Below the pieces are notes generated by a model that ran no database searches, had not been told where the DNA came from, and was given only the letters and a program-made list of their open reading frames with translations. Shown one piece after another: positions 2,981 through 42,894 of a stretch of DNA of 61,145 nt. Numbering within the stretch: the first letter of the stretch is position 1; every line of letters starts with the position of its first letter. The position numbers and the translations under genes are program-made. Location of the stretch: assembly GCA_011525945.1 (NCBI GenBank), contig WYBJ01000071.1, forward strand, positions 1 to 61,145, read 5' to 3'. Origin of the DNA: Burkholderiaceae bacterium. Its GTDB lineage: Bacteria > Pseudomonadota > Gammaproteobacteria > Burkholderiales > WYBJ01.

Positions 2981-3182
2981 GGCGAGCCTCTGTGAAAATG
3001 GCGCTACTTAAACGACTCCCTGACCCGTTCTCCTCCGGTGGGCTTAAACTACGCGCAATCGCCCGATTCGAATAGACCGGATACCGCGCCGTGGATGCAT
3101 CGACAAGTCAGCAAGTCACGAGCGCCCGCAGGATCCGTTCTACATCGCTTCGCTATTCCCGCACAGTCACTCACAAGCCAGC

Positions 3183-4013
3183 ATGGCCTCGCGCACCGCA
3201 TACAAAGCCATCATCCTGAGCGCCGGGCAGGGCAGCCGGCTCCTGCCCCATACCGAGCACGTTCCCAAGTGTCTGCTGGCATTGAACGGGTGCAGCTTGC
3301 TCGAATGGCAGCTGCAAAATCTCGCCGAGGCGGGTGTCCAAGAGGCCGTGGTCGTGACCGGCTTTCGCGACGACCTCGTGCGCCAAGAGATCGAGAGCCG
3401 CGCGCCTCGGTCCATGCAGGTCAGCACGCTCTTCAATCCCTTCTACAAGCTCGCCGACAATCTGGCGAGCTGCTGGATGGCGCGCGCAGAGCTCGCCGGC
3501 GCCTGCCTGATTCTCAACGGCGACACCTTGTTCGAGCCGGAAATCGCGCGCCGGCTGCTGGCGGCGCCGGACGCCCCGATCACGGTTACGATCGACCGCA
3601 AGTCAGCCTACGATGCCGACGACATGAAGGTGCACGATCATGGCAGCCGCATGATGGCTATCGGCAAGGCGTTGCCGGCGGGCGAGGTGACGGGCGAATC
3701 GATCGGCTTCCTGCGCTTCAATGCCGCGGGCGCCGCCCGGTTCGTCGCCGAGCTCGAGCACATCATGCGCACCCCGGAGGGCGCGAAGCTCTGGTATCTG
3801 TCGGCGATCGATCGCCTGGCGAAAGCCGGGGTGGATGTGCGCGTGGCGTCGATCGAGACGCTGCAATGGGCCGAGCTCGACTTTTCCGCCGATCTCGCGC
3901 GCTGTCGCGCAATCGCTGCTGCTTGGATCGCCCGGCGCCCGCTCGCCGATCGAAGTGAGTCAGGATTCGGTTTGGACGCGCCCCTCTCCCTGCGGGAGAG
4001 CGGGCGCGGGTGA
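3183..4013 (+). CDS. NTP-transferase (sugar-/alcohol-phosphate cytidylyl/nucleotidyltransferase, LicC/IPCT-like)
   Basis: N-terminal KAIILSAGQGSRL nucleotide-binding loop, then LILNGDTLFE and GESIGFLRF. The last ~12 codons (PLSLRESGRG) are encoded by the REP-like repeat at 3981-4018. Confidence 0.8.
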   Translation: MASRTAYKAIILSAGQGSRLLPHTEHVPKCLLALNGCSLLEWQLQNLAEAGVQEAVVVTGFRDDLVRQEIESRAPRSMQVSTLFNPFYKLADNLASCWMARAELAGACLILNGDTLFEPEIARRLLAAPDAPITVTIDRKSAYDADDMKVHDHGSRMMAIGKALPAGEVTGESIGFLRFNAAGAARFVAELEHIMRTPEGAKLWYLSAIDRLAKAGVDVRVASIETLQWAELDFSADLARCRAIAAAWIARRPLADRSESGFGLDAPLSLRESGRG

Positions 4014-4154: not shown

Positions 4155-4940
4155 TCAGAGCTTATCCGCGAGCGCGCGTACGAGCTCGAGATCGGCCGGC
4201 TTGTCGACGTCGATCGCCGCGCGCCCGTCGGCCAACTCCACGGCGCGAATGCTCGTGCCGGAAAGCGTCCCCAGCCGCGCGAGCGCATCGTCGAGGCGCA
4301 GTCGGCCGAGGCGGTAGCGCAGCGCCGCGCCGATTCCCAGGCGCAGCATCATCTTGAGCGGTGCTTTGCGATGCGCCTCGATCTCTCCCCAGAGGCGCAC
4401 GGCGCGTTCGGCGCTGGGGCGCTGGAAGCAAAAGAGATTGCAGCCCGAGTAATCGCCATCGGCGAAGCGAAGGTAGGTGCGTTGCGTTGCAGGCGCGCAC
4501 GCGACTACCGCGTCCTTGCGCGCGAGCGCGAGGGTCACATCGGCCTCGGGCGGGCAGGCGTCGAGAAACGCACCCAGCCACTGCGGCATGAGCAGTGCAT
4601 GATCGGCGGTGGTGACGACGAGCGGCGTGCCCTCGCGCTCGAGCACGGCAGCCACGCTGGCGCTCGGGCTGTACGCGGCCGGTACGATGGCAACCGGTTT
4701 CGGGCATCGTGGGGCGCGTAGCCCGGGTAGCGCCGATAACGCTTCCGGGCGCTCGATCGCGATGAGGATGCGGCTCACGGCGGGTACGGCGGCCAGTGCA
4801 GCCACGACGCGCTCGATCATCGTAGCACCGGCAACCTCGATCAGCGCCTTATGACTCACGCCGGCATATCTTGCGAGGGGATCGCCGTCTGGCCGGCTGC
4901 CGGCGAGCACGAGGGCACTGAGCCCGTTCTCCGCCTTCAA
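4155..4940 (-). CDS. MobA-like (GT-A fold) NTP-transferase domain protein
   Basis: Motifs SALVLAGSRPDGDPLA, EVAGATMIERVV and VVTTADHALL. Start set at TTG (complement 4938-4940), which overlaps the upstream stop as TTGA. The rest of track ORF 4155..5318 runs out of frame inside the upstream gene. The start is uncertain. Confidence 0.7.
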   Translation of the reverse strand: MKAENGLSALVLAGSRPDGDPLARYAGVSHKALIEVAGATMIERVVAALAAVPAVSRILIAIERPEALSALPGLRAPRCPKPVAIVPAAYSPSASVAAVLEREGTPLVVTTADHALLMPQWLGAFLDACPPEADVTLALARKDAVVACAPATQRTYLRFADGDYSGCNLFCFQRPSAERAVRLWGEIEAHRKAPLKMMLRLGIGAALRYRLGRLRLDDALARLGTLSGTSIRAVELADGRAAIDVDKPADLELVRALADKL

Positions 4941-6058
4941 GCGAGCGCCTTCTGGTAGATCCGGTAAGTCTTGTAGGGAACCGCGCCGAGCGTTTCGATC
5001 ACGCGCCGCATCGGCCGGTTGTCCTCCAGGATCCAGGAAAGCTCGACTTGCCGCACGCCGCGCGCTCGGGCGCCCGTGCGCAGCCGCTCGATGATGCCGT
5101 ACGCAAGTATGCCGCCGAGCACACCACCCTGGTACTGCGGTCGGATACCCATGAGCGGAACGCGTGCGGAGCGGGTTCCGCGCTTCAAGCGCACGAGCAG
5201 GCGCAACCAATTGAGCGGTAACAGACGGCCGTCGAAGCCGGCGATCGCCTCGTTGAGGTTCGGCAGCAGAATCCCGAATCCCACCGCTTTGCCGTCGATC
5301 TGTGCAATCGCGACACAACTCGGTTGAATCAAGGGCTTCAACGCCTTCGCCATGTGGCGGATCTCAGCCGCGGTGAACGGAATGAAGCCCCAGTTCGCGG
5401 ACCAGGCGGCGTTGAAGATCTCGGTGACGAGGTCGAACTCCTCGATGTAGCGGCGCATGTCGAGGGTGCGTACCGCGATCGCTCCGGGTGCTCGCGTATC
5501 GATGAGCCGGCGCGCGGCCGGCGGCAGATCGCGTTCGAGGTCGTACAGGTAGGCGATCGTGTCCTTCGCCTTGGCGTAGCCGCAAGCTTCCAGGCGCCGC
5601 GCCGCGTACGGCGGATCGTGCGCCATCATCATCATCGGCGGCGTGCCGAAGCCGTCGACGAGCAGGCCGCTTTCCTCGTTGATGGATAGATTGAAAGGGC
5701 CCAGTGCGCGATTTCGTCCGCGCGCAGACAGCCACGCCTCGGCTGCGCCAAACAGTGCCGCGAACGTGTCGGCGTCATCCTCGGCCGCGATCAGCCCGAA
5801 GTGGCCGTCCGCGTCCGGTGCGAGCCGGTCGACCTGGGCGCTAATGCGCCCGACATCCCGGCCTGCGCGTTGCGCCAGGAAGAACTGCGCTTCGGCGTGC
5901 TGAAAGTAGGGGTTGTGCCGCGGCGAGAGCGCCTGACTGCGCTCCAGATGCAGCGGCGTGACAAAGCACCGATCGGCCGCGTACAGTCGCGCGGGCAAAC
6001 GGATGAAGCGATCGAACTGCGAGCGCGTGCGCACCGGGACTACGGTTACGCCGCTCAT
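4937..6058 (-). CDS. GNAT-fold acyltransferase (~373 aa); candidate N-acyltransferase of the lipid island
   Basis: Begins MSGVTVVPVRTRSQFDRFIRLPARLY, with MMMAHDPPYAARRLEACGY and a GNAT-like motif-A region GIRPQYQGGVLGGILAYG. The ATG overlaps the upstream stop (ATGA at 6055-6058). The upstream 194 codons of the track ORF are Arg-rich shadow. Confidence 0.75.
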   Translation of the reverse strand: MSGVTVVPVRTRSQFDRFIRLPARLYAADRCFVTPLHLERSQALSPRHNPYFQHAEAQFFLAQRAGRDVGRISAQVDRLAPDADGHFGLIAAEDDADTFAALFGAAEAWLSARGRNRALGPFNLSINEESGLLVDGFGTPPMMMMAHDPPYAARRLEACGYAKAKDTIAYLYDLERDLPPAARRLIDTRAPGAIAVRTLDMRRYIEEFDLVTEIFNAAWSANWGFIPFTAAEIRHMAKALKPLIQPSCVAIAQIDGKAVGFGILLPNLNEAIAGFDGRLLPLNWLRLLVRLKRGTRSARVPLMGIRPQYQGGVLGGILAYGIIERLRTGARARGVRQVELSWILEDNRPMRRVIETLGAVPYKTYRIYQKALA

Positions 6059-7269
6059 CGGGGCTTGGAGCTCGCCGCGGGTGGGAACAGGAACCCGACC
6101 CAGACGGTTCGCAGCGTATGCCAAGCGAATGTCAGTGCCTGCCAGGCCGTGACCAGGATCAGTCCCGCGTCGCCAGTGCCGAGTGCGAGCGCGATCGCCA
6201 TGATCGTCATGGTGATGTTGCGGCGCGCGATCACGGCGCGTGCCAGCGCGTCGAGGCGCGTGGCCGCATGAAGCGCGGACCCGAGCTTGTATCGGGCGAT
6301 CCCGAGCACCAGTCGGTCGGCGACATAGAACACGATCAGCCATACGGCGGCGAGGTACATCGGATCGGCGAGCGTGCGCGCCCCCAGGCCCCAGGCCCAG
6401 GCGAAATACCAGAACGGCGGGTGCACTTGATCGAGTCCGTGGTCGAGAACGTTGCCGATCTTCGACTCGGTGAGCATCAGGCGCGCCACCTTGCCGTCGA
6501 CGCTGTCGAGCACGCTCATGGCGTAGGCGCACACGAAGCCGGCGAACCAATGTCCACCCGCCCACAGCGGTACGGCTGCGAATGCGAGCACTACCGACAG
6601 CGCCGTCAGCACGTTGGGGTGGACGCCGAGTGCGGTGCACACGCGCACGAGCGGCCAGACCAGCGGCGGATACACCCAGCGTGTCAGCAGGTCGGTCGAG
6701 CCTTTGTAGTTATCCCAGAAGAGCTGGCGCTCGAGCCGCCTGCGTGTGTCGGCATCCTCGACCACGTACTGCCACCAGGGAAGCGTGCGGCGCAGCTTGT
6801 CGATGTAGGCCGGGAAAGCGCGCTCGTCCAAAGGCGCGATCTTGCCGCCGGCGAGCAACGCATCGGCCACCGCGCTCAACGTGGTTGCTTCAGCGGGAAT
6901 GGCGTCGGCGTGCGAGCGATCCAGGCACAGGGCGGCGGCGCGCTGCGCGCCTTCGCCGCGCGCCGCCACACAGGGGCGAGCCGAAGCAAGAAAGCGGATC
7001 AGACGCGGGTCGGTGACGTGCGCGCCATCCACGGCGACGAGCGCTCCGCGAGCGTCGCGTAGTGCGCGCCGCAGCCGTTCGCCCAGCGGCGCCGTGCCGC
7101 AATCGGCACGCGCGCGGGGCCAGGCAGACTGTGCCGCACCGGCGCCGGACAGCATCACCGAATCGCCGGGCGCCAGATGACCGACGCTACGGCGCAGGCG
7201 CTCGAGTGGCGGCACGCCGAAGAGCGCTTGCGCCCGCGGCAGATTGCTTGTTTCGATCCAGAGGTTCAT
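6055..7269 (-). CDS. CDP-alcohol phosphatidyltransferase with ~190-aa N-terminal soluble extension (paralog 1)
   Basis: Exact signature D-G-x2-A-R-x8-G-x3-D-x3-D in DSVDGKVARLMLTESKIGNVLDHGLDQVHP. Multiple TM segments follow. ATGA overlap with the upstream gene at 7266-7269. Confidence 0.88.
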   Translation of the reverse strand: MNLWIETSNLPRAQALFGVPPLERLRRSVGHLAPGDSVMLSGAGAAQSAWPRARADCGTAPLGERLRRALRDARGALVAVDGAHVTDPRLIRFLASARPCVAARGEGAQRAAALCLDRSHADAIPAEATTLSAVADALLAGGKIAPLDERAFPAYIDKLRRTLPWWQYVVEDADTRRRLERQLFWDNYKGSTDLLTRWVYPPLVWPLVRVCTALGVHPNVLTALSVVLAFAAVPLWAGGHWFAGFVCAYAMSVLDSVDGKVARLMLTESKIGNVLDHGLDQVHPPFWYFAWAWGLGARTLADPMYLAAVWLIVFYVADRLVLGIARYKLGSALHAATRLDALARAVIARRNITMTIMAIALALGTGDAGLILVTAWQALTFAWHTLRTVWVGFLFPPAASSKPR

Positions 7270-8333
7270 CGGCGTTCGGCGAAATGAAGCTGCAGCAGTC
7301 CGATCGCGGAGAATAGCAGCGGCGCGGCGAGCGCGGCGACGACCGCGGGTATGCGTCCCGTCGTTCCGAGTGCAGCCATGAAGCCGTCGCACAGCAGGAA
7401 TGCGAGGCCAAGCCCAAGGGCAAGCAGCAGGGCGCCGGCTTCGTTGTTGCGACGCGGCAGCCCGCGCGCCGCCGGCAATGCGAGCAACAGCATGATGAAC
7501 GGCGCAAGCGGCAGCACGAACGAACGCACGAGTGCCGTCTGGTAGTAGCTCAGCGGCTGACTTGCGATGCGCTCGCCTCCGAGCACATCGATCAGCGCCG
7601 CGCTGGAGAGGTTCGGGCGCGCGATGTTGGCGCGGCGAACGTCATCCGGAGTGAGATTGGTCTGCCAGAGCGATATCGGTTCATCGGCACGAGGAACCGT
7701 CGCGCCCGGAACGACCAGTCGCTGGACACCTTCGAGCCGCCAGGCGCCGTGTTGCCATTGCGCGGACCGCGCTGCGATGCGCTCGGTGAGCAGGGTATTG
7801 TCACCGCGGACGTAAATGCGAACGCCGCCGAGGCGTTCGCCGTCGGCGGATGCGGTCAGATAGGATACCGGTCCCGTACTGGTGCGAAGCCAGCTCGGTT
7901 GCGGCGTATCATCGCGCGGCGCCGTGGCGGTCCACCAGGACTGCAACGCGGCTTCGGTATCGGGTACGACGGCTTGCGACAAGGCGATGTGCGTCATCGC
8001 CACGACCAGCGGAACGGGCAGCAGGTAGACGACGATCTGTTTCAGATTGACCCCGGCGGTGCGGATCGCGATCATCTCGTGGTGTCGGGCCAGGTCGTAA
8101 AATGCCCACATCGCACCGAGCAAGGCGGCGAGCGGCAGTGCCACTGTGATCTGGCTTGGCGCGCGCAGCGCGGCGTAGTACGCAAGCCCCTCGATGCCGA
8201 GGCCGCGATCGAGCACATCGGTGGTCATGTCCATCAGCTCGAGCGCTTGCATGAGTGCGATGAAAAAAATCGCAAGCAGCACGGTGTGTACAGCCACGCG
8301 CCGGCGCAGGTAGGCAGCGAGCGCGCCGTTCAT
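7266..8333 (-). CDS. LptG-like permease (YjgP/YjgQ family)
   Basis: Begins MNGALAAYLRRRVAVHTVLLAIFFIALMQALELMD. Organisation is 3 TM segments, a ~130-aa periplasmic domain, then 3 TM segments. It is the second of two tandem YjgP/YjgQ genes. ATGA overlap at 8330-8333. Confidence 0.8.
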   Translation of the reverse strand: MNGALAAYLRRRVAVHTVLLAIFFIALMQALELMDMTTDVLDRGLGIEGLAYYAALRAPSQITVALPLAALLGAMWAFYDLARHHEMIAIRTAGVNLKQIVVYLLPVPLVVAMTHIALSQAVVPDTEAALQSWWTATAPRDDTPQPSWLRTSTGPVSYLTASADGERLGGVRIYVRGDNTLLTERIAARSAQWQHGAWRLEGVQRLVVPGATVPRADEPISLWQTNLTPDDVRRANIARPNLSSAALIDVLGGERIASQPLSYYQTALVRSFVLPLAPFIMLLLALPAARGLPRRNNEAGALLLALGLGLAFLLCDGFMAALGTTGRIPAVVAALAAPLLFSAIGLLQLHFAERR

Positions 8334-9520
8334 CGCCGCCTCCCGCGCGCGAGGCCACGCGCATGCCGCAACGCTTCGCCCAGCCGGCTCTCGGCCCGGG
8401 TGAGCGGATTGTCGCCGGGCCAAGCGAGACTCGCGCGGAACAGCCAAAGGCAAAGCAGCGCGAATGCGACGAGCGGCAGCCACACCGACACTACGGCATC
8501 GGCGCGACCCGATTCAGCCAGGCTTTCGCCAAACTGCAGGCTGTGGTTGAGCACCAGCAAGGCGAGCGCGGTGAATACGGCGCCGGCGGCACGCCGGCCG
8601 CGTTTTGCCGCCATGCCGAGCGGAATGGCGAGCAGCGGCAGCAACGGCAGCACCGCCGAGCGTGCGAGGCGGCCGTGGAATTCACCCGCGAGGCGGGACG
8701 GGGCGATATCGGTTGCACCGCCGTGCATGTCGGCCCAGAGCTCGGGCAGCGTGAGCTCGCGCACCGAACCGCCGCGGGGGCGAAAAGTTGGCGCCTTGGG
8801 ATTGAAGTCCGCGTTGATCACCGCTTTCGTGAAGCGACCGAACCACGCCTTGCCCGGTTCGTACTCGCGCACGAGCAGGCCGTCTTCGAGTTCGAGCAGC
8901 AGGCGTCCGTCATCCGCGGGCACGAGTTCGCCTCGAGGCGCGGTCGTGATTTCCTCGCCGTCGCCCACGCGCCGCTGCACGAACACGCCTTGCAGGTGGC
9001 GCTTGTCGGGCGCGACCGCCTCGGCGTGGAAGACGAAGCCGCGGCCCGCCTTGCCGAAGCGATTCTCTTCCACTCGGGCATCCCAGCGGGCGTTCAGCGC
9101 CGCGTATACCTCGGCGCGGTAGGCGTAGCGGCTGAGCGGCTGCAGATGGCCGAAGAGGTAGAGGCTGAACACGGCGAGCCCGACGGCGAACACGAAGTAC
9201 GGCGCAGCCACACGCACGAGCGAGCGGCCAGAGGCGAGCACGATGTCGAGCTCGCTATCGTCGCTCAATCGAGCGAGTGCGAGGAACATGGCGACCGTGA
9301 AAGCCGCCGGCAGAGCGAGGCCGAGATAGTGCGGCAGCAGGTGCGCCGCCATGCGGAACACCGATGTGACCGGAGCGCCCGTGGCCGCGACCAGATCGAA
9401 CAGCCGCAGCAGGCGCTCGAGCAGTTGCGCAACCAGGATTGCGCCGAGGACGAAGCCGAGCGGGCCCATGAGGGCCCGCAACAGGTAGAAGTCCAGCCGG
9501 TACCCGCCCCTGGGCCGCAA
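8330..9520 (-). CDS. LptF-like permease (YjgP/YjgQ family)
   Basis: Begins RLDFYLLRALMGPLGFVLGAILVAQLLERLLRLFD, with IVLASGRSL. Same 3TM-periplasmic-3TM layout as its neighbour. The track start is a TTG at 9520, and the exact start is uncertain. Confidence 0.8.
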   Translation of the reverse strand: MRPRGGYRLDFYLLRALMGPLGFVLGAILVAQLLERLLRLFDLVAATGAPVTSVFRMAAHLLPHYLGLALPAAFTVAMFLALARLSDDSELDIVLASGRSLVRVAAPYFVFAVGLAVFSLYLFGHLQPLSRYAYRAEVYAALNARWDARVEENRFGKAGRGFVFHAEAVAPDKRHLQGVFVQRRVGDGEEITTAPRGELVPADDGRLLLELEDGLLVREYEPGKAWFGRFTKAVINADFNPKAPTFRPRGGSVRELTLPELWADMHGGATDIAPSRLAGEFHGRLARSAVLPLLPLLAIPLGMAAKRGRRAAGAVFTALALLVLNHSLQFGESLAESGRADAVVSVWLPLVAFALLCLWLFRASLAWPGDNPLTRAESRLGEALRHARGLARGRRR

Positions 9521-9536: not shown

Positions 9537-9980
9537 CTACGGGGCGGCTTGGCGCCAGGCCTGGCGCAACTCCCCCACCAGTGCGTCGCTGGCGGCAGCG
9601 TCCGGGACGACAGCAGGTTCCAGCATGGGCGGCCCCGGCCAGCCCGCGTCCGGGTAGTCCGCGCCCATGAAGCTGCGCTTGCCCGAATAACGCGGTATGA
9701 CGTGAAAGTGCACGTCCGGGTCCACCATCATCAGCATGAGGTAATTGATGCGTTCGTAATTCGTATACGCGCGCAGCATGTGCTCCGTCTTGCGCACCAC
9801 CTCGCGCAGTTCGGCAAAAGCTTGCGGGCTCGCATCGGAAAACGCGATCACCGGCTCGCGGCACACCAGCACGAGCGAGCCGAGCGTGGGCTGCCTGGGC
9901 CGCAGCAGCACGCTCCAGCGCTCGGTTTGCGCGATGCGAGTCGAAGGATCGCCGAACTTGATCTCGGTTGCGTTCGCCAT
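9537..9980 (-). CDS. HIT (histidine triad) family protein
   Basis: Begins MANATEIKFGDP. The triad region DVHFHVIPRY has Asp in place of the first His. It is the terminal part of the composite track ORF 9537..11285. Confidence 0.8.
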   Translation of the reverse strand: MANATEIKFGDPSTRIAQTERWSVLLRPRQPTLGSLVLVCREPVIAFSDASPQAFAELREVVRKTEHMLRAYTNYERINYLMLMMVDPDVHFHVIPRYSGKRSFMGADYPDAGWPGPPMLEPAVVPDAAASDALVGELRQAWRQAAP

Positions 9981-9982: not shown

Positions 9983-10942
9983 TCAGGCCACCGTTTGTTG
10001 CAGCCGCATCGGGCTCGAGCCGATCTGCTCCGGGGCGGCGTGTGGACGTGTCGTCGGGCGCGGAAGGCAGACTCGATAGCAGCCCGAATCGACGAAGCGC
10101 GCCTCGGCCATCGACCATTGGCGCACGGCGACCTCGACGGCACCCGCAGCCGAGAATCGTAGCCGGTGCCAGCGCGCGGCCTCGTCGCCCGCACTGGCTC
10201 GTGCAGTGGACGACGGCACGCACAGGCACGGAATCATGCCGCGCATCGCCCGCGGGCCCGGCAACGCGTCGAGCCGGGCGGCATGCGCATGGCCGTGCAG
10301 CACGAGCTCGGCGCCGGCGCGCTCGAGCACCGCGCAAAGTGCAGCCCGGTCGGCGAGCGCGCGGCGCCAGCCCACCGCGCCGGCGGCCACGGGGTGATGT
10401 ACGGCTACGATGCGTATGCGGCCGCTGCGCGCTTCGGCGTTGAGCGCGCTCTCCAGATGCGCAAGCTGGTGCGCGCCGATGCGCCCGCGAGCGAGTCCGG
10501 GTGCAGTCGGCCGTGCCGAATTGAGACCGATCAGCGCCAGACCTCCCCGATGATGAACGAAGGGCCAGCGACCGTCTGTGCTGGTCCATGCCGACCAGCG
10601 GCCCAGCCCCTCGGACTCGGCAACCGGAACCAGGGCATCGTGGTTGCCCGGCACGATGCTGATGCGATCGGCGGGTGCGAGCGCTTGCAGCCACGCCGCC
10701 GCACGCGTGAACTCCTCGGGTAGTGCGAAGTTCGTGAGATCGCCCGTGATCACGATATGGTCGAGCGCGGCCGCGCGCAACTCTGCGCTCAGCGCGGCGA
10801 GGATCTCCTCGCTTTGCACGTTGCGCCGGCGCCGCCACGCCCATGCACTCAACTGGCGCTTCGACAGTCGCTGCCGCAACCGCAGCTGCGGCTCGAACGG
10901 CAGGTGCAGGTCGGAGATGTGCGCAAGGGTGAAGGAATTCAT
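9983..10942 (-). CDS. calcineurin-like metallophosphoesterase
   Basis: Begins MNSFTLAHISDLHL (DxH), followed by ITGDLTN (GD), VPGNHD (GNHD), VAVHHP and LHGHAH. This is the first gene of the minus-strand operon that ends at 4155. Confidence 0.85.
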   Translation of the reverse strand: MNSFTLAHISDLHLPFEPQLRLRQRLSKRQLSAWAWRRRRNVQSEEILAALSAELRAAALDHIVITGDLTNFALPEEFTRAAAWLQALAPADRISIVPGNHDALVPVAESEGLGRWSAWTSTDGRWPFVHHRGGLALIGLNSARPTAPGLARGRIGAHQLAHLESALNAEARSGRIRIVAVHHPVAAGAVGWRRALADRAALCAVLERAGAELVLHGHAHAARLDALPGPRAMRGMIPCLCVPSSTARASAGDEAARWHRLRFSAAGAVEVAVRQWSMAEARFVDSGCYRVCLPRPTTRPHAAPEQIGSSPMRLQQTVA

Positions 10943-11013
10943 CGATAATGCTCGCCTTTGCGAAGCAGGACGATTGTGCCATACATTGCGCGCGCGGCGC
11001 GCCGTTGCCAACC

Positions 11014-12108
11014 ATGAGTGAGGTGTCCGGACACATCGTCGGCGAATCAGCGCTGCATATCTGGGGCCTGCCGTCCGCAGCGCGCTTGCGCCGGCAGCTC
11101 GAGCGCGCCGGCGCGCTCGCGGCGCGCGCCGAGCGTGGGGTGTGGCTGCGCGCGGACTGGGTGTACGACCAGCCGATCGTACGCGCGCTCGTCGCGACTC
11201 GCGAGAACTGTGCCCTGGTCGCGGCCGACGGCCGCTGCGTGGCGCTGAGCGTCACGGGCGAGCGGCACGCCGAGGCCGAGCCCACGCTCGCCGCGTACGG
11301 GGTTCCCGGGGGCGTGCGCGCCGTGAGCGTCGCGCAACTCGCCGGCAGCTACGACGACAAGCTGCGCAAGCGCGAGGCGCCTTATCTCATGCCGCTCTCG
11401 CCGCAGACGCTGCCGGCGATCGAACGTCGCATCTTCGGCGCAGCGTACAAGGGCGTGACCGATGCCGTTACGCTCTACCTCTGGCCGGCGCCGGCGCGGG
11501 CGGTGACACGCTTTTGCGCGCAGCACGCGATTACGCCCAACCAGGTGACGTTCGCGAGCCTGCTGCTGGTTTTGGCGGCGATGTGGCTTTTCTGGACCGG
11601 ACATTACGGCCTGGGCCTCGTTTGCGCATGGGTGATGACATTCCTCGACACGGTCGACGGCAAGCTTGCACGCGTCACGCTCACGTTCACCCGCTTCGGT
11701 GACGTGTTCGATCACGGCATCGACCTCATCCATCCGCCTTTCTGGTGGTGGGCGTGGCTCGTGGGGCTGCCGGCGGTGGGCCTGGCGCTCGACCATGCGT
11801 CCGTGGTTCTTGCGGCGATCGTCGCGGGCTACGTGGCACAGCGCCTGGAGGAGGGCGCGTTCATCGCCTGGTTCGGGATGGACATGCATACCTGGCAGCG
11901 CTTCGACAGCCGTTTTCGTCTGATCACCGCCCGGCGCAATCCCAACCTGCTGATCCTGACGTGCTCGGCGGCCGCGGGCAGACCGGATGTCGGTATCGTA
12001 GCGGTTGCGCTCTGGACCGTGTTTTCGCTCGGTGTGCACAGCGTGCGTCTGGCACAGGCGGGGCTGGTGCGCCGTCGGGGGCCGCTGCGCTCGTGGCTCG
12101 CGTCCTGA
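11014..12108 (+). CDS. CDP-alcohol phosphatidyltransferase with N-terminal extension (paralog 2)
   Basis: Signature in DTVDGKLARVTLTFTRFGDVFDHGIDLIHPPFWWW. The N-terminal domain is alignable by eye with paralog 1 (…KLRKREAPYL…AAYKGVTDAVTLYLWP versus …KLRRTLPWWQ…DNYKGSTDLLTRWVYP). The ATG at 11014 was chosen over the track start at 10948. Confidence 0.88.
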   Translation: MSEVSGHIVGESALHIWGLPSAARLRRQLERAGALAARAERGVWLRADWVYDQPIVRALVATRENCALVAADGRCVALSVTGERHAEAEPTLAAYGVPGGVRAVSVAQLAGSYDDKLRKREAPYLMPLSPQTLPAIERRIFGAAYKGVTDAVTLYLWPAPARAVTRFCAQHAITPNQVTFASLLLVLAAMWLFWTGHYGLGLVCAWVMTFLDTVDGKLARVTLTFTRFGDVFDHGIDLIHPPFWWWAWLVGLPAVGLALDHASVVLAAIVAGYVAQRLEEGAFIAWFGMDMHTWQRFDSRFRLITARRNPNLLILTCSAAAGRPDVGIVAVALWTVFSLGVHSVRLAQAGLVRRRGPLRSWLAS

Positions 12109-13055
12109 AATCCGGCACACACCCGCATGCGGCGCTCGCTGCGCTGATCGAACCGGAGCTCGATCGCGTCCTGCCGCGCGAAGTCGCCGCGTTCGCCGAG
12201 CGACTCGCGGCGCGCGCCGGCGCCAAGACCGCGGCAGTGCTCTTCTATGGCTCGGCGTTGCGCGACCAGGCGCTCGATGGCTTGCTCGATTTCTATCTGC
12301 TGGTCGATCGAGCGCGTGCGTGGCCCGGTTCGTGGCTCGCCGCGGCGGCCATGCGCGTATTGCCGCCCAATGTCGGCTACGCGGAAGAGGAATTCGGCGG
12401 GCGAATGCTGCGCGCCAAGTACGCCGTCATGACTTTGGCGCAGTTTCGCCGTGCGATGGCAGCGCGCTCGCTCGACACGACGCTCTGGACGCGCTTCTCG
12501 CAGCCGTGCGCCTGCGCCTATGCACGCAGCGACGACGATCGCGATGCGGTGCTCGATGCCGCGTGCGCGGCCACGCTGGCGGCGGCGTACTGGGCGGCCG
12601 TGGTCGGACCCGATCGCGGCGAGCCCTCGGCGTACTGGAACGCGCTCTACGCCCGCACCTACGAGCTCGAGCTCAGGGTGGAGTCGGCGCGGCGCAGCGA
12701 CTCCGTGCTCGCCGGGGCGAGCGAGCGCTATGCGCGCCTGCTGCCCGTGGCGTGGCACGCTGCTGGCGTCGCATTCGAGACGCACCGCGATGAATTGCGC
12801 CGGCTGCTCGCGCCAAGCGATCGTGCCGCTGCCCTGCGACGATGGGCACTGCGACGCCGGCTCGGGCGGGCGCTCAATTTGCTGCGGCTCATGAAAGCGG
12901 CGCTCACGTTCGAGCGTCCGCTCGATTACGTCGCATGGAAAGTCGAACGCCATTCGGGCGTACGGCTCGACTTCGCGCCATGGCAACGGCGCTTTCCTCT
13001 GCTCGCCGCACCCGGGCTTTACTGCCGTTTGCGCCGCCGCGGCCTGCTCCGTTAG
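12093..13055 (+). CDS. Tam41/Mmp37-like nucleotidyltransferase-fold protein (putative lipid-phosphate cytidylyltransferase)
   Basis: 3-prime part of track ORF 11745..13055. Contains VLFYGSALRDQALDGLLDFYLLVD (NTase G-S…D motif), LRAKYAVMTLAQF…LWTRFSQP and a C-terminal LRLMKAALTFERPLDYVAWKVER. These resemble Tam41 as I remember it. The start is provisional: GTG 12093, overlapping the upstream gene by 16 nt. Confidence 0.6.
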   Translation: MARVLKSGTHPHAALAALIEPELDRVLPREVAAFAERLAARAGAKTAAVLFYGSALRDQALDGLLDFYLLVDRARAWPGSWLAAAAMRVLPPNVGYAEEEFGGRMLRAKYAVMTLAQFRRAMAARSLDTTLWTRFSQPCACAYARSDDDRDAVLDAACAATLAAAYWAAVVGPDRGEPSAYWNALYARTYELELRVESARRSDSVLAGASERYARLLPVAWHAAGVAFETHRDELRRLLAPSDRAAALRRWALRRRLGRALNLLRLMKAALTFERPLDYVAWKVERHSGVRLDFAPWQRRFPLLAAPGLYCRLRRRGLLR

Positions 13056-13112: not shown

Positions 13113-14102
13113 TCATCGCATCGTCGGGCGCTCGGCGAGCCAGCCGGCGGCCCGGTACCAGGCCACCGCATCCGCAAACCCGGATTCGAGCTCGAACCGA
13201 GGACTCCAGCCCCTGGGCCTGGCCTGCTCGTTGACAGACACCGACCAGTCGAGATGGGAGATTTCACGCAGCTTGTGCGAATTGAGCATCGTCGGCGTGC
13301 CCAGCAAACGCCCCAGATCTCCCGCCCACGCGGCCGTACGCAGCAACGCCCGCGGCATCCGCACGAGCCGTGCATGCGGATTGCCGACGGCACGCGCGCC
13401 CGCGCCCAGAATCTCGCGCCAGTCGTAGCCTTGCGCTCTCGCGTCGGTTGCCGCCAGCACCTCGCCCTCGGGCTTGGCTGTCGCCAGCGCGACGATGAGG
13501 GCGGCGAGATCGCGCACGTGAATGAGCGCCACGCGTGCCTGCGCCGAGGCGGGTAGCGCGACGATGCGATGACGCGCCAGGCGAAACAAGCGCAGCGTCT
13601 CCGGATCGGCAGGACCGTACACCGCGGCGGGACGCAGCACCGTCGCCTGCGCCCCGAGTATTTCGCGCACCGCGTCCTCGCCCGCGCGCTTGCTCGCGGC
13701 GTAGTCGGACAGACACGGTTCGCGTGCGGCGAGCGTGGAAACGTGGACGAAATGCGCCCGGGGCGCAAGTCGCCGTGCGCTGCCGGCAAGCGCTGCGCTC
13801 GCCGCGGCGTTGACCTGGAAGAAATCCCGCCGGCGCGCCGCCTTGATGAGCCCGGCGACATGGATCACCGCGTCTGCGCCGTCGACCAGACGCTCGAGCG
13901 CGGACGCATCGGCCAGCGCGCCGGCCACGACTTCGGGACAAATCCCGTGCCAGTCCGCGTCGTGCGGTTCGCGCCGCACGAGCATGCGCAGCCGCCACCC
14001 GGCGTGCGCGAGCGCGGGCACGAGATGGCGGCCGATGAAGCCAGTTGCGCCGGTCAGCGCCGCAAGCGGCGCGCCGGAGTCGGCCGGTTCTGTCGCGATC
14101 AT
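13113..14102 (-). CDS. NAD(P)-dependent epimerase/dehydratase-fold (extended SDR) reductase
   Basis: Rossmann loop LTGATGFIGRHLV and a YxxxK motif in DYAASKRAGE. Confidence 0.85.
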   Translation of the reverse strand: MIATEPADSGAPLAALTGATGFIGRHLVPALAHAGWRLRMLVRREPHDADWHGICPEVVAGALADASALERLVDGADAVIHVAGLIKAARRRDFFQVNAAASAALAGSARRLAPRAHFVHVSTLAAREPCLSDYAASKRAGEDAVREILGAQATVLRPAAVYGPADPETLRLFRLARHRIVALPASAQARVALIHVRDLAALIVALATAKPEGEVLAATDARAQGYDWREILGAGARAVGNPHARLVRMPRALLRTAAWAGDLGRLLGTPTMLNSHKLREISHLDWSVSVNEQARPRGWSPRFELESGFADAVAWYRAAGWLAERPTMR

Positions 14103-17724: not shown

Positions 17725-17744
17725 CGCGTGCGTTTGCTGCTACG

Positions 17745-22010: not shown

Positions 22011-23775
22011 GCACGATCGCGCGTGCCGCCGAAGCCGCAGGCAGCGGCGCGGCGGCGCGGACCTCGCGATCCTCCACCCGGTAGAGGCGATCGGCGATTC
22101 TCATGAGCCCCTCCTGGTGTGCGACCGCAAGCATGGTGAGACTGCCTTTGAGGTGGCACAGCGTTTCGAGCACGGCGGCCTGGGCTTGGGCATCCAGATT
22201 GCTGGTGGCTTCGTCGAGGATGAGCAGGCGCGGCTTGTGGATGAGCGCCCGGGCGATCGCCAGGCGCTGGCGCTGGCCGCCGGAAAGTCGCGAGCCGCCT
22301 TCGCCGATGGGCGTGTGCACGCCTTGCGCCATCGCTTCGACGAATTCGAGGGCATCGGCCGCACGCAACGCCGCTCTGAGCGCTTCCTCCGGCACCGCCT
22401 CGCCGAGCGTCACGTTGTAGGCTACCGATTCGTTCAGCAGGATCGATTCCTGCGGCACATAGCCGATCTGGCCGCGCCAGGCGCGAAGATCCATCTCGGC
22501 GAGCGCAACGCCATCGACGAGAATGCGACCGCGGTCGGGTTGCAGCAGTCCGACCACCAGGTCGAGCACGGTGGTCTTGCCGGCACCCGAGGGACCGACC
22601 AGGACGGTGAGTTCGCCCGCGGCAATGACGAACGACTGGTCGCGCACCACCATGGTATCGTCATGGCCGAAGCTCACGTTCTCGAAGCGGATCTCGCGCT
22701 CGAGCTCGACCAGGCGCGAGCCGCCGGCGGATTCGCGTTCATCGTACGCCGCCTCGATCGCCGCGGTTATGGACCAATAGGCGCTCTCGCGCATCGCGAC
22801 CTGCTGGAAGGCACGCTGGCTCTTCGACAGGTAGTTCACGACGCGCGCGAGCAGGAACAGCATCACAAGCAGGTTCGCCATCGGCATCTTCAGTACGACC
22901 AGACCGAGGTAGAAGCCGACGCAAACCATGATCGCGAGCAGCGGCTCCTGCAGCGCGGAGAGCGCCTCCTTGGCGACCACCTGTCGTCGCAGCGCGCGCC
23001 GCAGTTGGCGCGTGAGATCGGACAGCAGCGCCTCGATATGACTTTCGCGCGCCATTGCCTTGAGCGGTTTGGCGGCGGCAAGACGACTGCCGACCGCCGC
23101 CAGCAGCGATTTGAACAGCTCCGTCTGATGGCGACTCGCGCGCCGCGAATTCCGGATCAGGCGGCTCAAGGCGAGCAGCAGCAGTGCGCCCGCGAGCAGC
23201 GCAGCGATGCCCGCCGGGGCCGAAATCGACAGCGCAATGCCGAGATAGATGACCGCGTTGAGCGCGAGCGCCAGCATCTCGGCGGTGTGCTGGAAGGCCT
23301 CGGCGCCGCGCTGTGCCTCGGCGCCGAGCGATGCGGACAGCTTTCCGACCGACTGTTGTACGTAATAGCGCCAGTGCGCATTGGCTACGGCGCGGATCAG
23401 TGCGAGGCGCAGATCCGATGCGATCCGCGCCACGGTATATCCGACCTGTCGGTTGGCGAGCAGGGCGAGCGCCGCTTTGCCCGCGATCAGCAGGACCGCG
23501 AGCACGAGCAGGTTGCGCGGCGTCGCGGGCACGTGCAGGAACTCGGTTACGCGAAGCGCGATGCGTTGCGGCAGACTTGCAGCGCCGTGCGCTTCGCCGC
23601 CGGCGAGCGAGAGCATCGACAGCAGCATCGACAGACCGAGCCCGTCGAGCAAGCCGGCGACGAACACCGCGCCGAGCCCGGCCGCGCTGCGGCCGGGATA
23701 GCGCCGCAGCACGGCGCAGATCATCGCGAAGCTGCCGCGGCTGCGGATCGCGGCAGCAGCAGGCAAGGCATTCAT
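22003..23775 (-). CDS. ABC exporter, fused permease/ATPase (MsbA-like half transporter)
   Basis: N-terminal 6-TM region. Walker A GPSGAGKTT, signature LSGGQRQRLAIARAL, Walker B LLILDEATSNLD. Start ATG overlaps the upstream stop (ATGA 23772-23775). 8-nt overlap with the downstream gene. Confidence 0.88.
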   Translation of the reverse strand: MNALPAAAAIRSRGSFAMICAVLRRYPGRSAAGLGAVFVAGLLDGLGLSMLLSMLSLAGGEAHGAASLPQRIALRVTEFLHVPATPRNLLVLAVLLIAGKAALALLANRQVGYTVARIASDLRLALIRAVANAHWRYYVQQSVGKLSASLGAEAQRGAEAFQHTAEMLALALNAVIYLGIALSISAPAGIAALLAGALLLLALSRLIRNSRRASRHQTELFKSLLAAVGSRLAAAKPLKAMARESHIEALLSDLTRQLRRALRRQVVAKEALSALQEPLLAIMVCVGFYLGLVVLKMPMANLLVMLFLLARVVNYLSKSQRAFQQVAMRESAYWSITAAIEAAYDERESAGGSRLVELEREIRFENVSFGHDDTMVVRDQSFVIAAGELTVLVGPSGAGKTTVLDLVVGLLQPDRGRILVDGVALAEMDLRAWRGQIGYVPQESILLNESVAYNVTLGEAVPEEALRAALRAADALEFVEAMAQGVHTPIGEGGSRLSGGQRQRLAIARALIHKPRLLILDEATSNLDAQAQAAVLETLCHLKGSLTMLAVAHQEGLMRIADRLYRVEDREVRAAAPLPAASAARAIVHG

Positions 23776-24809
23776 AGGCTGAGGAAATGCACGCGCGGCC
23801 CCGCGCGGATCGTCACCGGCAGGGCCGGGTCGACATCGAACGACTCGCCGTCCAGAGTGTAGCTCGACAGTCCCGAAGCGCCCAGGGCATCGCAACGGCC
23901 GCTCAGATACCCTCGTTCGGCATCCATGGCGGGCGTGAACCGGCCAGTGATCAACCACGGCAGCCGCGCCCAGAAACTCGGGCCGCGTGCCGCCACGGCC
24001 GTGAAGCGCACACCGCCGTGGCCATGCCGAGCGTACGGGTCGAGAACGCCCTGACGCTTCTGCAGCGTGCTGGCGATGAACCAGCGAGCGGGCTTCGCCA
24101 GCATTTCACGCCCAGGCACCTCGACGCGCAAATCATCCAACGGCGGTTCGCGCATGCCGAGCATGGCGGGCAGCGCCAGCGCAGCGAGGCTGCACGCGGT
24201 GCCAAGATCGCTCTGGCGCAGTCGTCCGCTGCCGTCGCTGCGATGGCGGTGACACGCCCGGATCGCGCGGTCGACGAGTCCGGCTGCGAGAAAAAAACCA
24301 TGTCGCGCCGGCGCCTTAGGCTGCTCGATGCGCAGCACCTGCCGTACTGTGACACCGAACGGTACACCATCGCGCCAGCGCTCGAGCGCGCGCTCGAGCT
24401 TCGGCAGTACGTCGCCGCGCCCGCCGAGGTCGCCCGCCGTGAGATTGGTGCGACCGCCGCCGAGCAGCAGCAGCCGGGGTTGCACGACGCCGGCGGGAAG
24501 CAGGGCAAGCCGGTCCACGAAGGCCTGTACCGTGCCGTCGCCGGCGAGGAGAAAAACCGTCTGTTGGTCACGCCGCAGGATGAGGTCGAGCGTCGCGGCG
24601 ATGCCGCTCGGGTCGGCGGCGTGAATCACTTCGATACCGTGCGCGCCGGCGAGCCGGGCAGCGTGCTGCGCGAGGCGGTCGCGCGCGGCACTGTGGCTCA
24701 TCGGGTTGACCACGAGACAGGGCCTATGCGGTGCGGATTGCGGTGGTCGCGCCGTCGCCGCGGCCCGCGTGCTCACGGCGTTCGCGGCAGGCCGGGATTT
24801 TGCGCCCAT
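23772..24809 (-). CDS. DAG-kinase catalytic-domain (YegS/BmrU-like) lipid kinase
   Basis: Motifs CLVVNPMS, FLLAGDGTVQAF (GDGT) and LLLLGGGRTNLTAGDLG. An alternative start, GTG at 24776, would form a GTGA overlap with the upstream stop. Confidence 0.78.
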   Translation of the reverse strand: MGAKSRPAANAVSTRAAATARPPQSAPHRPCLVVNPMSHSAARDRLAQHAARLAGAHGIEVIHAADPSGIAATLDLILRRDQQTVFLLAGDGTVQAFVDRLALLPAGVVQPRLLLLGGGRTNLTAGDLGGRGDVLPKLERALERWRDGVPFGVTVRQVLRIEQPKAPARHGFFLAAGLVDRAIRACHRHRSDGSGRLRQSDLGTACSLAALALPAMLGMREPPLDDLRVEVPGREMLAKPARWFIASTLQKRQGVLDPYARHGHGGVRFTAVAARGPSFWARLPWLITGRFTPAMDAERGYLSGRCDALGASGLSSYTLDGESFDVDPALPVTIRAGPRVHFLSL

Positions 24810-25951
24810 CGTTGCATCGCCGATCGTTGCGCCGGCGTCGCCTTCGCGTTGCGCCACAGCTCGGCCAGCGCTGCGAAGAAACTGCGCCGCCCGGTCGCGT
24901 GATAAGGAGCGTCTCGTGGCAGCAGCTCGCTCAGGCGCCGGTGCGCTCTGCCGAGATTGTGATAGGGAAGCGCGGGGAACAGGTGATGCAGTGCGTGATA
25001 ACGCAGGCCGACGGGAAAGAGCAGCACCGTGAGCCAGGTCTGACCGGTGATGTTGATGGAGTCTTGCATCTGTTCGAGGTGACTCATGCGCTCGCCGCGG
25101 TTGCCGTAGCGATGGGCGGCGAGATTGCGTACCCAGTTGAGCCCGAGTGCGCCGGCGACCAGCAAGTAACCCATGAAGATGTCTGCCACGCCGACGATAC
25201 CGGCAGCGAGCAGGCCGGCGAGGCTCGCCAGGTAGGCGAAAGAAATCGCCTCCACGATGACGAGATGGCGCTCGTCGCGATGCGGGAAGCGTTTCGCGTA
25301 GTAGGGATTCGACACCGCCGCCGAGGCGCGCGTAAGCACCCATTCGCGCAGCCTGCGATTGAGCCAGGACAGCGGCCCGAGCAGGCCCAGGCGTACGAGC
25401 ATGAAAAGCGGCAGCAGCGGAACCTGGGCGAGGTACTTGATCGTTTCGCGAAGCGGCGAAGCTCCCAGCGGAAGGTATTCGCCGTCCTCGGGTGTGCCGA
25501 AATGGCGGGCGTCGTGGTGGTCGGCATGGTTGCGATAGAAGATCCACGGCATGAGGAACGGGATGCCCACGGCGAGGTTCCACGCAGGCCCGAACCATCG
25601 CGCCTGATCGGGGCGCATGTGCACCAGCTCGTGGATGAACGTTCCGCTGCGGAAAAACAGCAGGATGCTCGCGACGTACGCTACCGCTTGGACGAGGCTC
25701 CACGTCGGGGCGAGAAAGTATACGGCCGTGAAACCCCAGGCTGCCGCGCTGGTCAGCGAGAAGTCGATCCAGTAGATGGGCGCGGAGCGCGCGTAGAGGT
25801 CACTCACCGCGGCGCGCGCTTGCTCGAACCAAGCGGGCATTTCACGGGCCTTCCCCCCGACCTGGCCTGCATCGGGAGGAGCGCCGTTGCCCGCGCCCTG
25901 TTGGCCGGGACCGCCTCCGGCGCGGCTACTTTCACTGACAACCTGCGGCAT
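24773..25951 (-). CDS. membrane fatty-acid/sphingolipid desaturase-hydroxylase family protein
   Basis: Three His boxes: HELVH, HADHHD and HALHHLF. Several TM segments. The start could be the inner ATG at 25840. Confidence 0.85.
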   Translation of the reverse strand: MPQVVSESSRAGGGPGQQGAGNGAPPDAGQVGGKAREMPAWFEQARAAVSDLYARSAPIYWIDFSLTSAAAWGFTAVYFLAPTWSLVQAVAYVASILLFFRSGTFIHELVHMRPDQARWFGPAWNLAVGIPFLMPWIFYRNHADHHDARHFGTPEDGEYLPLGASPLRETIKYLAQVPLLPLFMLVRLGLLGPLSWLNRRLREWVLTRASAAVSNPYYAKRFPHRDERHLVIVEAISFAYLASLAGLLAAGIVGVADIFMGYLLVAGALGLNWVRNLAAHRYGNRGERMSHLEQMQDSINITGQTWLTVLLFPVGLRYHALHHLFPALPYHNLGRAHRRLSELLPRDAPYHATGRRSFFAALAELWRNAKATPAQRSAMQRWAQNPGLPRTP

Positions 25952-27957: not shown

Positions 27958-28181
27958 GGGATAGGGCCGAGGTGGAGGAGGTCGTCCGGCAGGCGTTGCG
28001 TGCCGTGCGCACCGAAGAGGTCGATGTCGGCGCGGGCGATGCTCTCGGGCTTGATTCGACGCAGGCGATGGAGCTCATCATGCAGATCGAAGAACGCCTC
28101 GACATCTCCATCCCGGTCGACACGCTGGCCGACTCGCGCACCTTCGATCAGCTTTGCAGCGGCATCATGCGGCTCGACTAG
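27954..28181 (+). CDS. acyl carrier protein
   Basis: 75 aa, with the phosphopantetheine site in ALGLDSTQAMELIMQIEERL. The ATG overlaps the ligase stop (ATGA 27954-27957). Confidence 0.8.
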   Translation: MRDRAEVEEVVRQALRAVRTEEVDVGAGDALGLDSTQAMELIMQIEERLDISIPVDTLADSRTFDQLCSGIMRLD

Positions 28182-28185: not shown

Positions 28186-29382
28186 GTGAGTCTGCTCGAC
28201 AAATTCGAGGCACTGCGATCGCTGCAAATGGCGCTGGCGCACGCGGCGAGCGTGCCGGCGGTTGCCACTCCGATGGACGAAGTGCACTCGGCGCGGGAAG
28301 CCACGGTGCAGGGACGCCGATTGTTGCTCGCCGGCAGCAACAACTATCTCGGCCTCACCTTCGATGATGCCTGCCGCGCGGCCGCGATCGCGGCGATCGA
28401 AGCCTACGGTACGGGCAGCACCGGCTCGCGCATGGCCAGCGGCAACTATCGCCTACACCGCGGCCTGGAACGTGCGTTGGCCGATGCGTTCGGTTGGCCG
28501 GCCGGGATTGTCTTCTCGACCGGATACCAGGCGAATCTCGGTACGCTCTCGGCCCTGGGCGGTGCGGGCGATTACCTCCTGGTCGACAGTGACAGCCATG
28601 CCAGCATTCACGACGGCTGTCGCCTGAGCGCGGCGACCACGATCCGCTTTCGCCACAACGATCCGGACAATCTCGACCGGCGGCTCACGCGTCTGGGCGA
28701 CGAGGCCCGGCGCACGCTGATCGTGGTGGAAGCGCTCTACAGCACGCTGGGCGACCGCGCGCCGCTCGATGAGATCGCGGACATCAAGGCGCGCCACGGC
28801 GCCTGGCTGATCGTCGATGAAGCGCATTCGTTCGGCCTGTTCGGTGCCCGCGGGGTGGGATTGTGCGAGGAGCTCGACCTGCTCGATGAGGTCGACTTCA
28901 TCGTCGGCACCTTTTCCAAGAGCCTGGGCGGGGTGGGCGGGTTCTGCGTCAGCCGGCATGCCGAGTTCGAGCTGTTGCGCATGGCAAGCCGCCCCTACAT
29001 CTTCACCGCCTCACCGGCGCCCGCGGTGATCGGCGCCACGCGCGAGGCGCTGCGACGCGTGCTCGCCGGTGCCGACCTGCGGCGGCGCCTCTGGCGGCAC
29101 GCGCATCGCCTGTATGGCGAGCTCGACAAGCTGGGTTTCAGTCTCGGCTCGACAACCCCCGGGCCCATCGTCGCCCTGGTGTACGCCGAGCGCGACACCG
29201 CCATCGCCCATTGGCAGGCGCTGCTCGATGCCGGGATCTACACCAATCTCATGGTGCCGCCTGCGACACCCGGCGGGCTGAGCGTGGTGCGCATAAGCCT
29301 CTCCGCCGCGCACACCGACGAGGACATCGCGTACATTCTACACAGCCTGGAAGCGCTTGCCCCCGCGCGCGTGGCGACTTGA
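28186..29382 (+). CDS. alpha-oxoamine synthase (serine palmitoyltransferase / 8-amino-7-oxononanoate synthase family)
   Basis: Motifs GSNNYLGL, VDEAHSFG and the PLP-lysine motif GTFSKSLGGVGG. The gene starts 4 nt after the ACP stop. Confidence 0.88.
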   Translation: MSLLDKFEALRSLQMALAHAASVPAVATPMDEVHSAREATVQGRRLLLAGSNNYLGLTFDDACRAAAIAAIEAYGTGSTGSRMASGNYRLHRGLERALADAFGWPAGIVFSTGYQANLGTLSALGGAGDYLLVDSDSHASIHDGCRLSAATTIRFRHNDPDNLDRRLTRLGDEARRTLIVVEALYSTLGDRAPLDEIADIKARHGAWLIVDEAHSFGLFGARGVGLCEELDLLDEVDFIVGTFSKSLGGVGGFCVSRHAEFELLRMASRPYIFTASPAPAVIGATREALRRVLAGADLRRRLWRHAHRLYGELDKLGFSLGSTTPGPIVALVYAERDTAIAHWQALLDAGIYTNLMVPPATPGGLSVVRISLSAAHTDEDIAYILHSLEALAPARVAT

Positions 29383-31673: not shown

Positions 31674-31700
31674 GTGCGGGCAGACAAAGGAGATTGATCC

Positions 31701-32597: not shown

Positions 32598-32627
32598 CGC
32601 AACACTCACGAGACGGAGGAGGTCGCT

Positions 32628-41883: not shown

Positions 41884-41896
41884 CGCGCTACCCCGT

Positions 41897-42894
<998 letters not shown>

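Follow-up and report, generated by a model that had tools for sequence, protein, structure and literature searches.

Introduction

The sphingolipid genes of Caulobacter are gathered in a locus of 17 genes, CC_1152-CC_1168, in which the ceramide synthase gene cerS/bcerS (CC_1154 = CCNA_01212) directly follows lptF2-lptG2 (CC_1156, CC_1155) and is followed by two nucleotidyltransferase genes, CC_1153 and CC_1152 (PMC11324152). The genetic and biochemical functions of the Caulobacter genes have been reported (PMC11324152, PMC11087976, PMC9386255), and a GNAT-type ceramide synthase is a convergent solution already described for bacteria. The placement of cerS beside lptF2-lptG2, published for Caulobacter, has been predicted for beta- and gamma-proteobacteria (PMC11324152), and the beta-proteobacterium N. 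eutropha is covered in two studies (PMC11324152, PMC9386255). According to a 2026 preprint, LptF2/LptG2 are required for sphingolipid transport (bioRxiv 10.64898/2026.04.12.717747). Here we compare with this locus a contig of 61,145 nucleotides (nt) from Burkholderiaceae bacterium (GCA_011525945.1, WYBJ01000071.1), hereafter the window, focusing on the minus-strand gene at 4937-6058 and the reductase gene at 13113-14102. We propose, at a probability of about 90%, that the first encodes bCerS, a soluble tandem-GNAT ceramide synthase, and the second CerR, an NDUFA9-like extended short-chain dehydrogenase/reductase (SDR), and that both belong to a ceramide pathway island orthologous to that of Caulobacter. 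Orthology, fold, synteny and gene overlaps come from the present analysis; chemistry, substrates and step order are drawn from the literature on the Caulobacter enzymes.

Results

The two genes that carry this assignment are:
4937..6058, minus strand: predicted bCerS ortholog (tandem-GNAT N-acyltransferase), 373 amino acids (aa); 53% identity to C. vibrioides bCerS, tandem GNAT fold, mutual best match
13113..14102, minus strand: predicted CerR ortholog (NDUFA9/extended-SDR-like ceramide reductase), 329 aa; 47% identity to a Caulobacter epimerase, motifs, Pfam Epimerase

The bCerS reference was found via the NA1000 cloning primers EK1199 and EK1313 (PMC11087976 supplement). A wobble-tolerant search of species-representative genomes for the C-terminus that the primer encodes, VYEKAL followed by a stop codon, gave 50 matches; 32 of the 50 were homologs of the window protein, one of them in Caulobacter vibrioides DSM 9893 (L053 in our numbering of loci). 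There, the 22-nt EK1199 (MPFDSTN...) matches the beginning of the open reading frame (ORF) at 2150-3304 exactly, as EK1313 does its end, and the flanks of this ORF hold LptF2, LptG2 and homologs of CC_1153 (MGSGGQQG..., primer oLOP446, GTG start) and CC_1152 (MQPVKTLIL..., primer oLOP444). A genome scan with oLOP446 including its ATG returned no match; C. vibrioides natively starts CC_1153 with GTG. This conspecific type strain and the congeneric Caulobacter sp. GCA_017744445.1 (L057) stand in as references for the NA1000 proteins ACL94677.1 and ACL94687.1. The congeneric genome supplied the sphingolipid cluster within 10 kb, with aasR cut off; the Caulobacter cluster P0305 (148 members) occurred only on short contigs stopping before cerR, and P0301 was used instead.

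In BLASTP the window protein aligned with DSM 9893 bCerS over 375 aa at 53% identity and 69% similarity (E 2e-144), and with bCerS of Caulobacter sp. GCA_017744445.1 at 51% identity, the two Caulobacter proteins being 89% identical to each other. In the reverse direction, Caulobacter bCerS matched only 4937-6058 in the window (E 1.5e-123; next E 0.19). The window protein and Caulobacter bCerS were also mutual best matches among 135 full-length representatives of 50%-identity clusters, so that the reciprocal tests covered the window genes and these 135 family representatives. The reciprocal comparison that a preliminary description of this DNA, made from the sequence alone, had proposed as a check was thus positive. 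Accepted orthologs in Hyphomonas, Sphingomonas, Zymomonas and Nitrosomonas share 40-45% identity, a range that the 53% of the window protein exceeds. C. crescentus bCerS (CC_1154/CCNA_01212) has 384 aa versus 373 aa in the window; the proteins are alignable end to end, and both close on YR(V/I)Y(E/Q)KAL.

The reductase at 13113-14102 lies 7.05 kb from the GNAT gene and matches Pfam Epimerase (E 1.5e-24) and NAD_binding_10, with GATGFIG at residue 18 and YAASK at residue 134. Its PDB sequence matches are mostly to NDUFA9, the 39-kDa complex I subunit (E ~3e-11), and the best single match is 9g83, a NAD-dependent epimerase/dehydratase (E 9e-17). In L057 the epimerase that occupies the cerR position (CC_1164), between aasR and acpR-spt, has a C-terminus (...NIVA) that agrees with the NA1000 cerR primer EK1309; it matched the window reductase bidirectionally at 47% identity over 318 aa (E 8e-73). 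Caulobacter CerR (CC_1164/CCNA_01222) and the window reductase are both extended-SDR, NDUFA9-like proteins with GxxGxxG and YxxxK motifs, in agreement with the earlier proposal that the GxxGxxG/YxxxK reductase 7 kb away is the CerR equivalent.

The bCerS gene runs from ATG at 6058-6056 to TGA at 4939-4937 (373 codons plus stop) in a window of 66.8% G+C. An independent gene caller run on identical public Logan contigs gave the same boundaries and starts for this gene and for the downstream 261-aa gene. Homologs of the 373-aa protein number >6,900 at E<=1e-3 in a 90%-clustered collection, and a 50%-identity library contains 6,769 matching clusters at E<=1e-3, of which 1,120 remain at E<=1e-30; such numbers of homologs and clusters indicate a real gene. 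Its closest database relative, at 99% identity, is from a Burkholderiales metagenome-assembled genome (MAG). The gene belongs to a co-directional block of seven, whose other members are:
9983..10942, minus strand: metallophosphoesterase, CC_1158 ortholog; Pfam Metallophos; 43%, E 1e-65
9537..9980, minus strand: HIT-family protein, CC_1157 ortholog; Pfam HIT; 53%, E 1e-55
8330..9520, minus strand: LptF2, sphingolipid-specific LptF paralog; Pfam LptF_LptG; 42%, E 2e-86 to Caulobacter LptF2
7266..8333, minus strand: LptG2, sphingolipid-specific LptG paralog; Pfam LptF_LptG; 31-32%, E 1e-51 to Caulobacter LptG2
6055..7269, minus strand: extra CDP-alcohol phosphotransferase, CC_1159 paralog, 404 aa; Pfam CDP-OH_P_transf; 34% to Caulobacter CC_1159
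4155..4940, minus strand: MobA/CofC-like nucleotidyltransferase, CC_1153 ortholog; Pfam NTP_transf_3; 46%, E 9e-60

The preliminary description had noted that the GNAT-type gene overlaps both neighbours, and both overlaps are seen in the sequence: its ATG overlaps the TGA of the upstream gene (ATGA at 6058-6055), and its own TGA overlaps the TTG with which the 261-aa gene downstream begins (TTGA at 4940-4937). With further ATGA overlaps at 8333-8330 (LptF2/LptG2) and 7269-7266 (LptG2/CDP-alcohol phosphotransferase), four consecutive 4-nt overlaps chain the five genes for LptF2, LptG2, the CDP-alcohol phosphotransferase, the GNAT protein and the nucleotidyltransferase. The gene directly upstream of bcerS is this phosphotransferase and not LptG. 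The operon slot of bcerS is the same in Caulobacter, where the gene follows lptF2-lptG2 and overlaps the CC_1153 homolog at the latter's start.

The LptF/LptG-like proteins are far closer to Caulobacter LptF2 and LptG2 than to E. coli LptF and LptG, the canonical comparator here being E. coli and not a beta-proteobacterial LptFG. The LptF-like protein gave E 1.1 against E. coli LptF (versus E 2e-86 to LptF2), and the LptG-like protein gave 23% identity and E 4e-17 against E. coli LptG (versus E 1e-51 to LptG2). This identifies them as the sphingolipid-specific paralogs. The earlier view that bcerS lies in an LptFG operon therefore holds as to the presence of LptF/LptG-like genes in the same operon, and not as to their being the lipopolysaccharide (LPS) exporter; we rejected a canonical exporter, as the closest similarity is to the LptF2/LptG2 paralogs.

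Beyond this block, the correspondence with Caulobacter extends over the whole core: in bidirectional BLASTP against the Caulobacter cluster, 13 window genes were mutual best matches of CC_1152-CC_1164. The order CC_1158-1157-1156-1155-(extra gene)-1154-1153 is kept, with CC_1152 convergent, and bCerS, Spt, AcpR, the candidate AasR and CerR all lie within 25 kb. The remaining genes related to the pathway are:
28186..29382, plus strand: serine palmitoyltransferase Spt, 398 aa; Pfam Aminotran_1_2; 50%, E 6e-129 to Caulobacter Spt
27957..28181, plus strand: AcpR, specialised acyl carrier protein, 74 aa; Pfam PP-binding, E 5e-10; 41% to Caulobacter AcpR; LGLDS motif
26086..27957, plus strand: candidate AasR-like acyl-acyl carrier protein synthetase, 623 aa; Pfam AMP-binding and position only
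3183..4013, plus strand: nucleotidyltransferase, CC_1152 ortholog; Pfam NTP_transferase; 58%, E 4e-93
10948..12108, plus strand: CDP-alcohol phosphotransferase, CC_1159 ortholog; Pfam CDP-OH_P_transf; 52%, E 4e-125
12093..13055, plus strand: CC_1161 (CpgA, Tam41-like) ortholog, 320 aa, no Pfam match; 41%, E 5e-59
23772..24773, minus strand, start codon not fixed: ceramide-kinase-like DAGK_cat protein (CC_1160-like); Pfam DAGK_cat, E 2e-6; 27%, E 7e-9 to CerK
24773..25951, minus strand: FA_desaturase-family protein; Pfam FA_desaturase

The AasR candidate sits directly upstream of acpR-spt, as in the cultured Burkholderiales Xylophilus sp. GOD-11R, in the slot where aasR (CC_1165) is expected. 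Both the Caulobacter and the window bCerS co-occur with spt, acpR and cerR, with aasR a candidate in the window. The core order of the island is the same in Xylophilus, and bCerS homologs co-occur with these sphingolipid genes there and in several other loci; Piscinibacter koreensis and Rhizobacter spp. are further cultured carriers of the island. Homologs of the FA_desaturase-family protein, possibly an acyl-chain hydroxylase, neighbour bCerS homologs in several Sphingomonadales loci; in Xylophilus the neighbour is CerK. The called starts of the divergent metallophosphoesterase (minus strand) and CC_1159-like (plus strand) genes are 5 nt apart (10942-10948), so either one of the two starts has been called wrongly or both promoters are located within the coding sequences next to them. 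Between its CC_1152 homolog and aasR-acpR-spt, Xylophilus carries genes for a phosphopantetheinyl transferase (ACPS), a cytochrome P450 and an AMP-binding/PP-binding fusion (L058 12779-16847), which are absent from the window.

The presence of Spt, AcpR and the candidate AasR, together with bCerS and CerR orthology, supports the earlier inference that the GNAT gene and the reductase complete a ceramide core pathway. In such a pathway, AasR would load a fatty acid onto AcpR, and Spt would form 3-oxosphinganine from acyl-AcpR and serine. In the cytoplasm, bCerS would then use an acyl thioester to place a second acyl chain on the C2 amine of 3-oxosphinganine, and CerR would reduce the 3-keto group, yielding dihydroceramide. 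The same enzymes could instead act in a eukaryote-like order, an alternative that has been published, with CerR first converting 3-oxosphinganine to sphinganine and bCerS then acylating the latter. CC_1154 can N-acylate either 3-oxosphinganine or sphinganine (PMC11324152 S1 Text), and PMC11087976 lays out both step orders as models. However, the latter study also assigns Caulobacter CerR to the periplasm but Spt and bCerS to the cytoplasm, a separation that speaks against reduction first and favours acylation before reduction; we consider the eukaryote-like order unlikely. The window sequence itself does not discriminate between the two orders, and the window CerR sequence has no obvious signal peptide, whereas Caulobacter CerR is reported to be periplasmic.

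With acylation before reduction as the preferred order, dihydroceramide would receive an anionic phospho-head group of the ceramide-phosphoglycerate type through the CerK-like kinase (23772-24773) and the CpgA-like protein (12093-13055). The CDP-alcohol phosphotransferases (10948-12108, 6055-7269), the nucleotidyltransferases (3183-4013, 4155-4940) and the metallophosphoesterase (9983-10942) would also take part in building the head group, and LptF2/LptG2 (8330-9520, 7266-8333) would draw the finished lipid out of the inner membrane so that it can be exported.

The predicted structure of the 373-aa protein agrees with its assignment as a GNAT-type enzyme. A confident AlphaFold2 model built from 48 sequences (predicted local distance difference test (pLDDT) 85.2, predicted template modelling score 0.85) is a globular alpha/beta protein. 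The top Foldseek matches in the PDB are the tandem GNATs 2wpw, 5kf1, 7q3a and MshD 1ozp (E 1e-13 to 5e-17). By the model, the protein comprises two GNAT domains in one chain, so that the fold first described as GNAT-type is more exactly a tandem GNAT. A PDB sequence search returned one marginal and irrelevant match only (2wtm, E 0.006). Eukaryotic ceramide synthases (Lag1/TLC) perform the same chemical step, the N-acylation of a long-chain base (PMC11087976); they are polytopic membrane TLC proteins and non-homologous, whereas the window protein is a soluble GNAT in which the Pfam scan detected no TLC domain.

Solved tandem GNATs (the clavulanate-pathway enzyme 2wpw, glucosamine N-acetyltransferase 5kf1, MAB_4324 7q3a, and MshD 1ozp/2c27) likewise carry two GNAT domains per chain and superimpose at template modelling scores of ~0.6-0.7. 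Their acetylation targets are small and soluble; the acceptor of bCerS is instead a lipid amine, to which it attaches a long acyl chain. That these small-molecule enzymes are the best structural matches, and that one close homolog has a precomputed PF00583 match, would suit a generic tandem-GNAT acetyltransferase acting on a small molecule or a lipid head group (MshD-, clavulanate-pathway- or glucosamine-N-acetyltransferase-like). Yet the window protein shares 12-18% identity with these structures versus 53% with a genetically defined ceramide synthase, and in both alpha- and beta-proteobacteria synteny links the bCerS-family gene to spt, cerR and lptF2G2. On identity and synteny we rejected the small-molecule reading, which we hold to be very improbable.

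Conservation points to features that the family shares with the Caulobacter enzyme. Among 137 family sequences, positions conserved in at least 93% include G70, R71, G88, G120, P121, G131, R197, W219, N222, W223, R299, G304, W342 and N347 (numbering of the window protein). The motif GPFNLSINEE.GLL (G120-P121...G131), continuing as ..GF.TPP, is common to the window protein and Caulobacter bCerS. The sole low-confidence stretch of the model, residues ~121-150 (pLDDT 53-63), starts at this motif, and may be a loop that becomes ordered only on substrate binding.

The family appears in the sources as 'ceramide synthase', as 'dATP pyrophosphohydrolase' (a legacy name) and as 'Hypothetical protein associated with Serine palmitoyltransferase'; of ten distant representatives that we looked up, few carry names. 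Close Burkholderiales homologs are named 'dATP pyrophosphohydrolase' at NCBI, as are older records of Caulobacter members, whereas newer RefSeq/UniRef records of the latter read 'ceramide synthase'; no NCBIfam model (release 20) matches the Burkholderiales or the Caulobacter proteins. That the name borne by many close homologs is correct, making the protein a NudB-type nucleotide hydrolase, is almost certainly wrong: neither Pfam nor NCBIfam detected a Nudix or other hydrolase domain, the tandem GNAT fold contradicts it, and the same legacy name stood on the Caulobacter proteins newly named ceramide synthase. A literature search combining dATP pyrophosphohydrolase with ceramide found nothing.

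Additions to the Caulobacter plan are concentrated in two places. The extra CDP-alcohol phosphotransferase sits between lptG2 and bcerS with an ATGA overlap to each. Xylophilus sp. GOD-11R carries this insertion too (L058 8793-10001), whereas in L055 and L057, the two Caulobacter loci for which genes were called, lptG2 directly abuts bcerS. Between 14045 and 23958 lies a decoration/transport block without counterpart in Caulobacter CC_1152-1168, adjoined by the window cerR, which neighbours the CpgA-like gene and the ELM1-family gene. The block comprises:
ELM1-family protein (~740-800 aa)
GT4 glycosyltransferase
~17724-18821: 365-aa protein without Pfam match
S-adenosylmethionine-dependent methyltransferase
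GT2 glycosyltransferase
LpxL-family lipid A acyltransferase
MsbA-like ABC transporter

These genes may serve sphingolipid modification or LPS synthesis. Relative to the Caulobacter locus CC_1152-CC_1168, which covers the ceramide phosphoglycerate pathway and LptF2/G2/C2, the window thus adds a second CDP-alcohol phosphotransferase, the block genes and the desaturase/hydroxylase; the host also differs, being a beta-proteobacterium (a Burkholderiales MAG).

Two further regions are unrelated to the lipid island. An oligopeptide ABC transporter is encoded at 30669-35384 (plus strand), and a Bat-like aerotolerance operon with a MoxR-type AAA ATPase, DUF58 and three VWA/BatA-type proteins at 36367-44499 (minus strand).

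Discussion

Several observations weigh against reading the two genes as bCerS and CerR of a sphingolipid island. The host is an uncultured Burkholderiales MAG, and both activities are predicted from genes alone. The references derive from DSM 9893 and GCA_017744445.1, not from NA1000, and of six NA1000/CB15 primers tested only four match DSM 9893 exactly. The window cerR lies 14 kb from spt/acpR, whereas cerR and spt are adjacent in Caulobacter. Scans with Pfam and NCBIfam (release 20) gave no match for the 373-aa protein; this weighs little, since the Caulobacter enzyme also has no Pfam match on record. Finally, the scanned window ORFs include no homolog of CC_1166, CC_1167 or LptC2 (CC_1168); N. 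eutropha, A. vinelandii and P. luteola are likewise reported without homologs of these three (PMC11324152).

The family itself, the partnership with CerR and the position at lptF2-lptG2 are already known; what the window adds is an uncharacterised Burkholderiales member. As the arrangement had been published or predicted (PMC11324152), the earlier reading of this DNA is correct and not new. A literature search combining Burkholderiales, sphingolipid, ceramide synthase and serine palmitoyltransferase returned nothing, which limits statements on prior reports for the order. The features beyond Caulobacter, namely the second CDP-alcohol phosphotransferase (kept in Xylophilus) and the decoration/transport block at 14-24 kb, are the only mildly new aspect.

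The combination of the whole CC_1152-CC_1164 core with the added CDP-alcohol phosphotransferase, ELM1, GT4/GT2, methyltransferase, LpxL and MsbA-like genes makes an elaborate phosphosphingolipid possible. We tentatively suggest that the Burkholderiales island could make a sphingolipid more elaborate than the ceramide (di)phosphoglycerate of Caulobacter, perhaps an LPS-like, glycosylated or O-acylated phosphosphingolipid exported via LptF2G2 without a dedicated LptC2. We hold this proposal to be less likely than not.

The N. eutropha protein is reported to be only 41% identical to Caulobacter bCerS. Together with the mutual best match between the window and Caulobacter proteins and the kept gene order, this hints, at the level of sequence comparison, that the island moved horizontally between Caulobacter-like alpha-proteobacteria and this Burkholderiales lineage.

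For the window protein and the Burkholderiales proteins closely related to it, the assignment corrects the misleading name 'dATP pyrophosphohydrolase'. A freshwater/soil lineage of Burkholderiales also joins the bacteria for which sphingolipid synthesis and export via LptF2/LptG2 are predicted.

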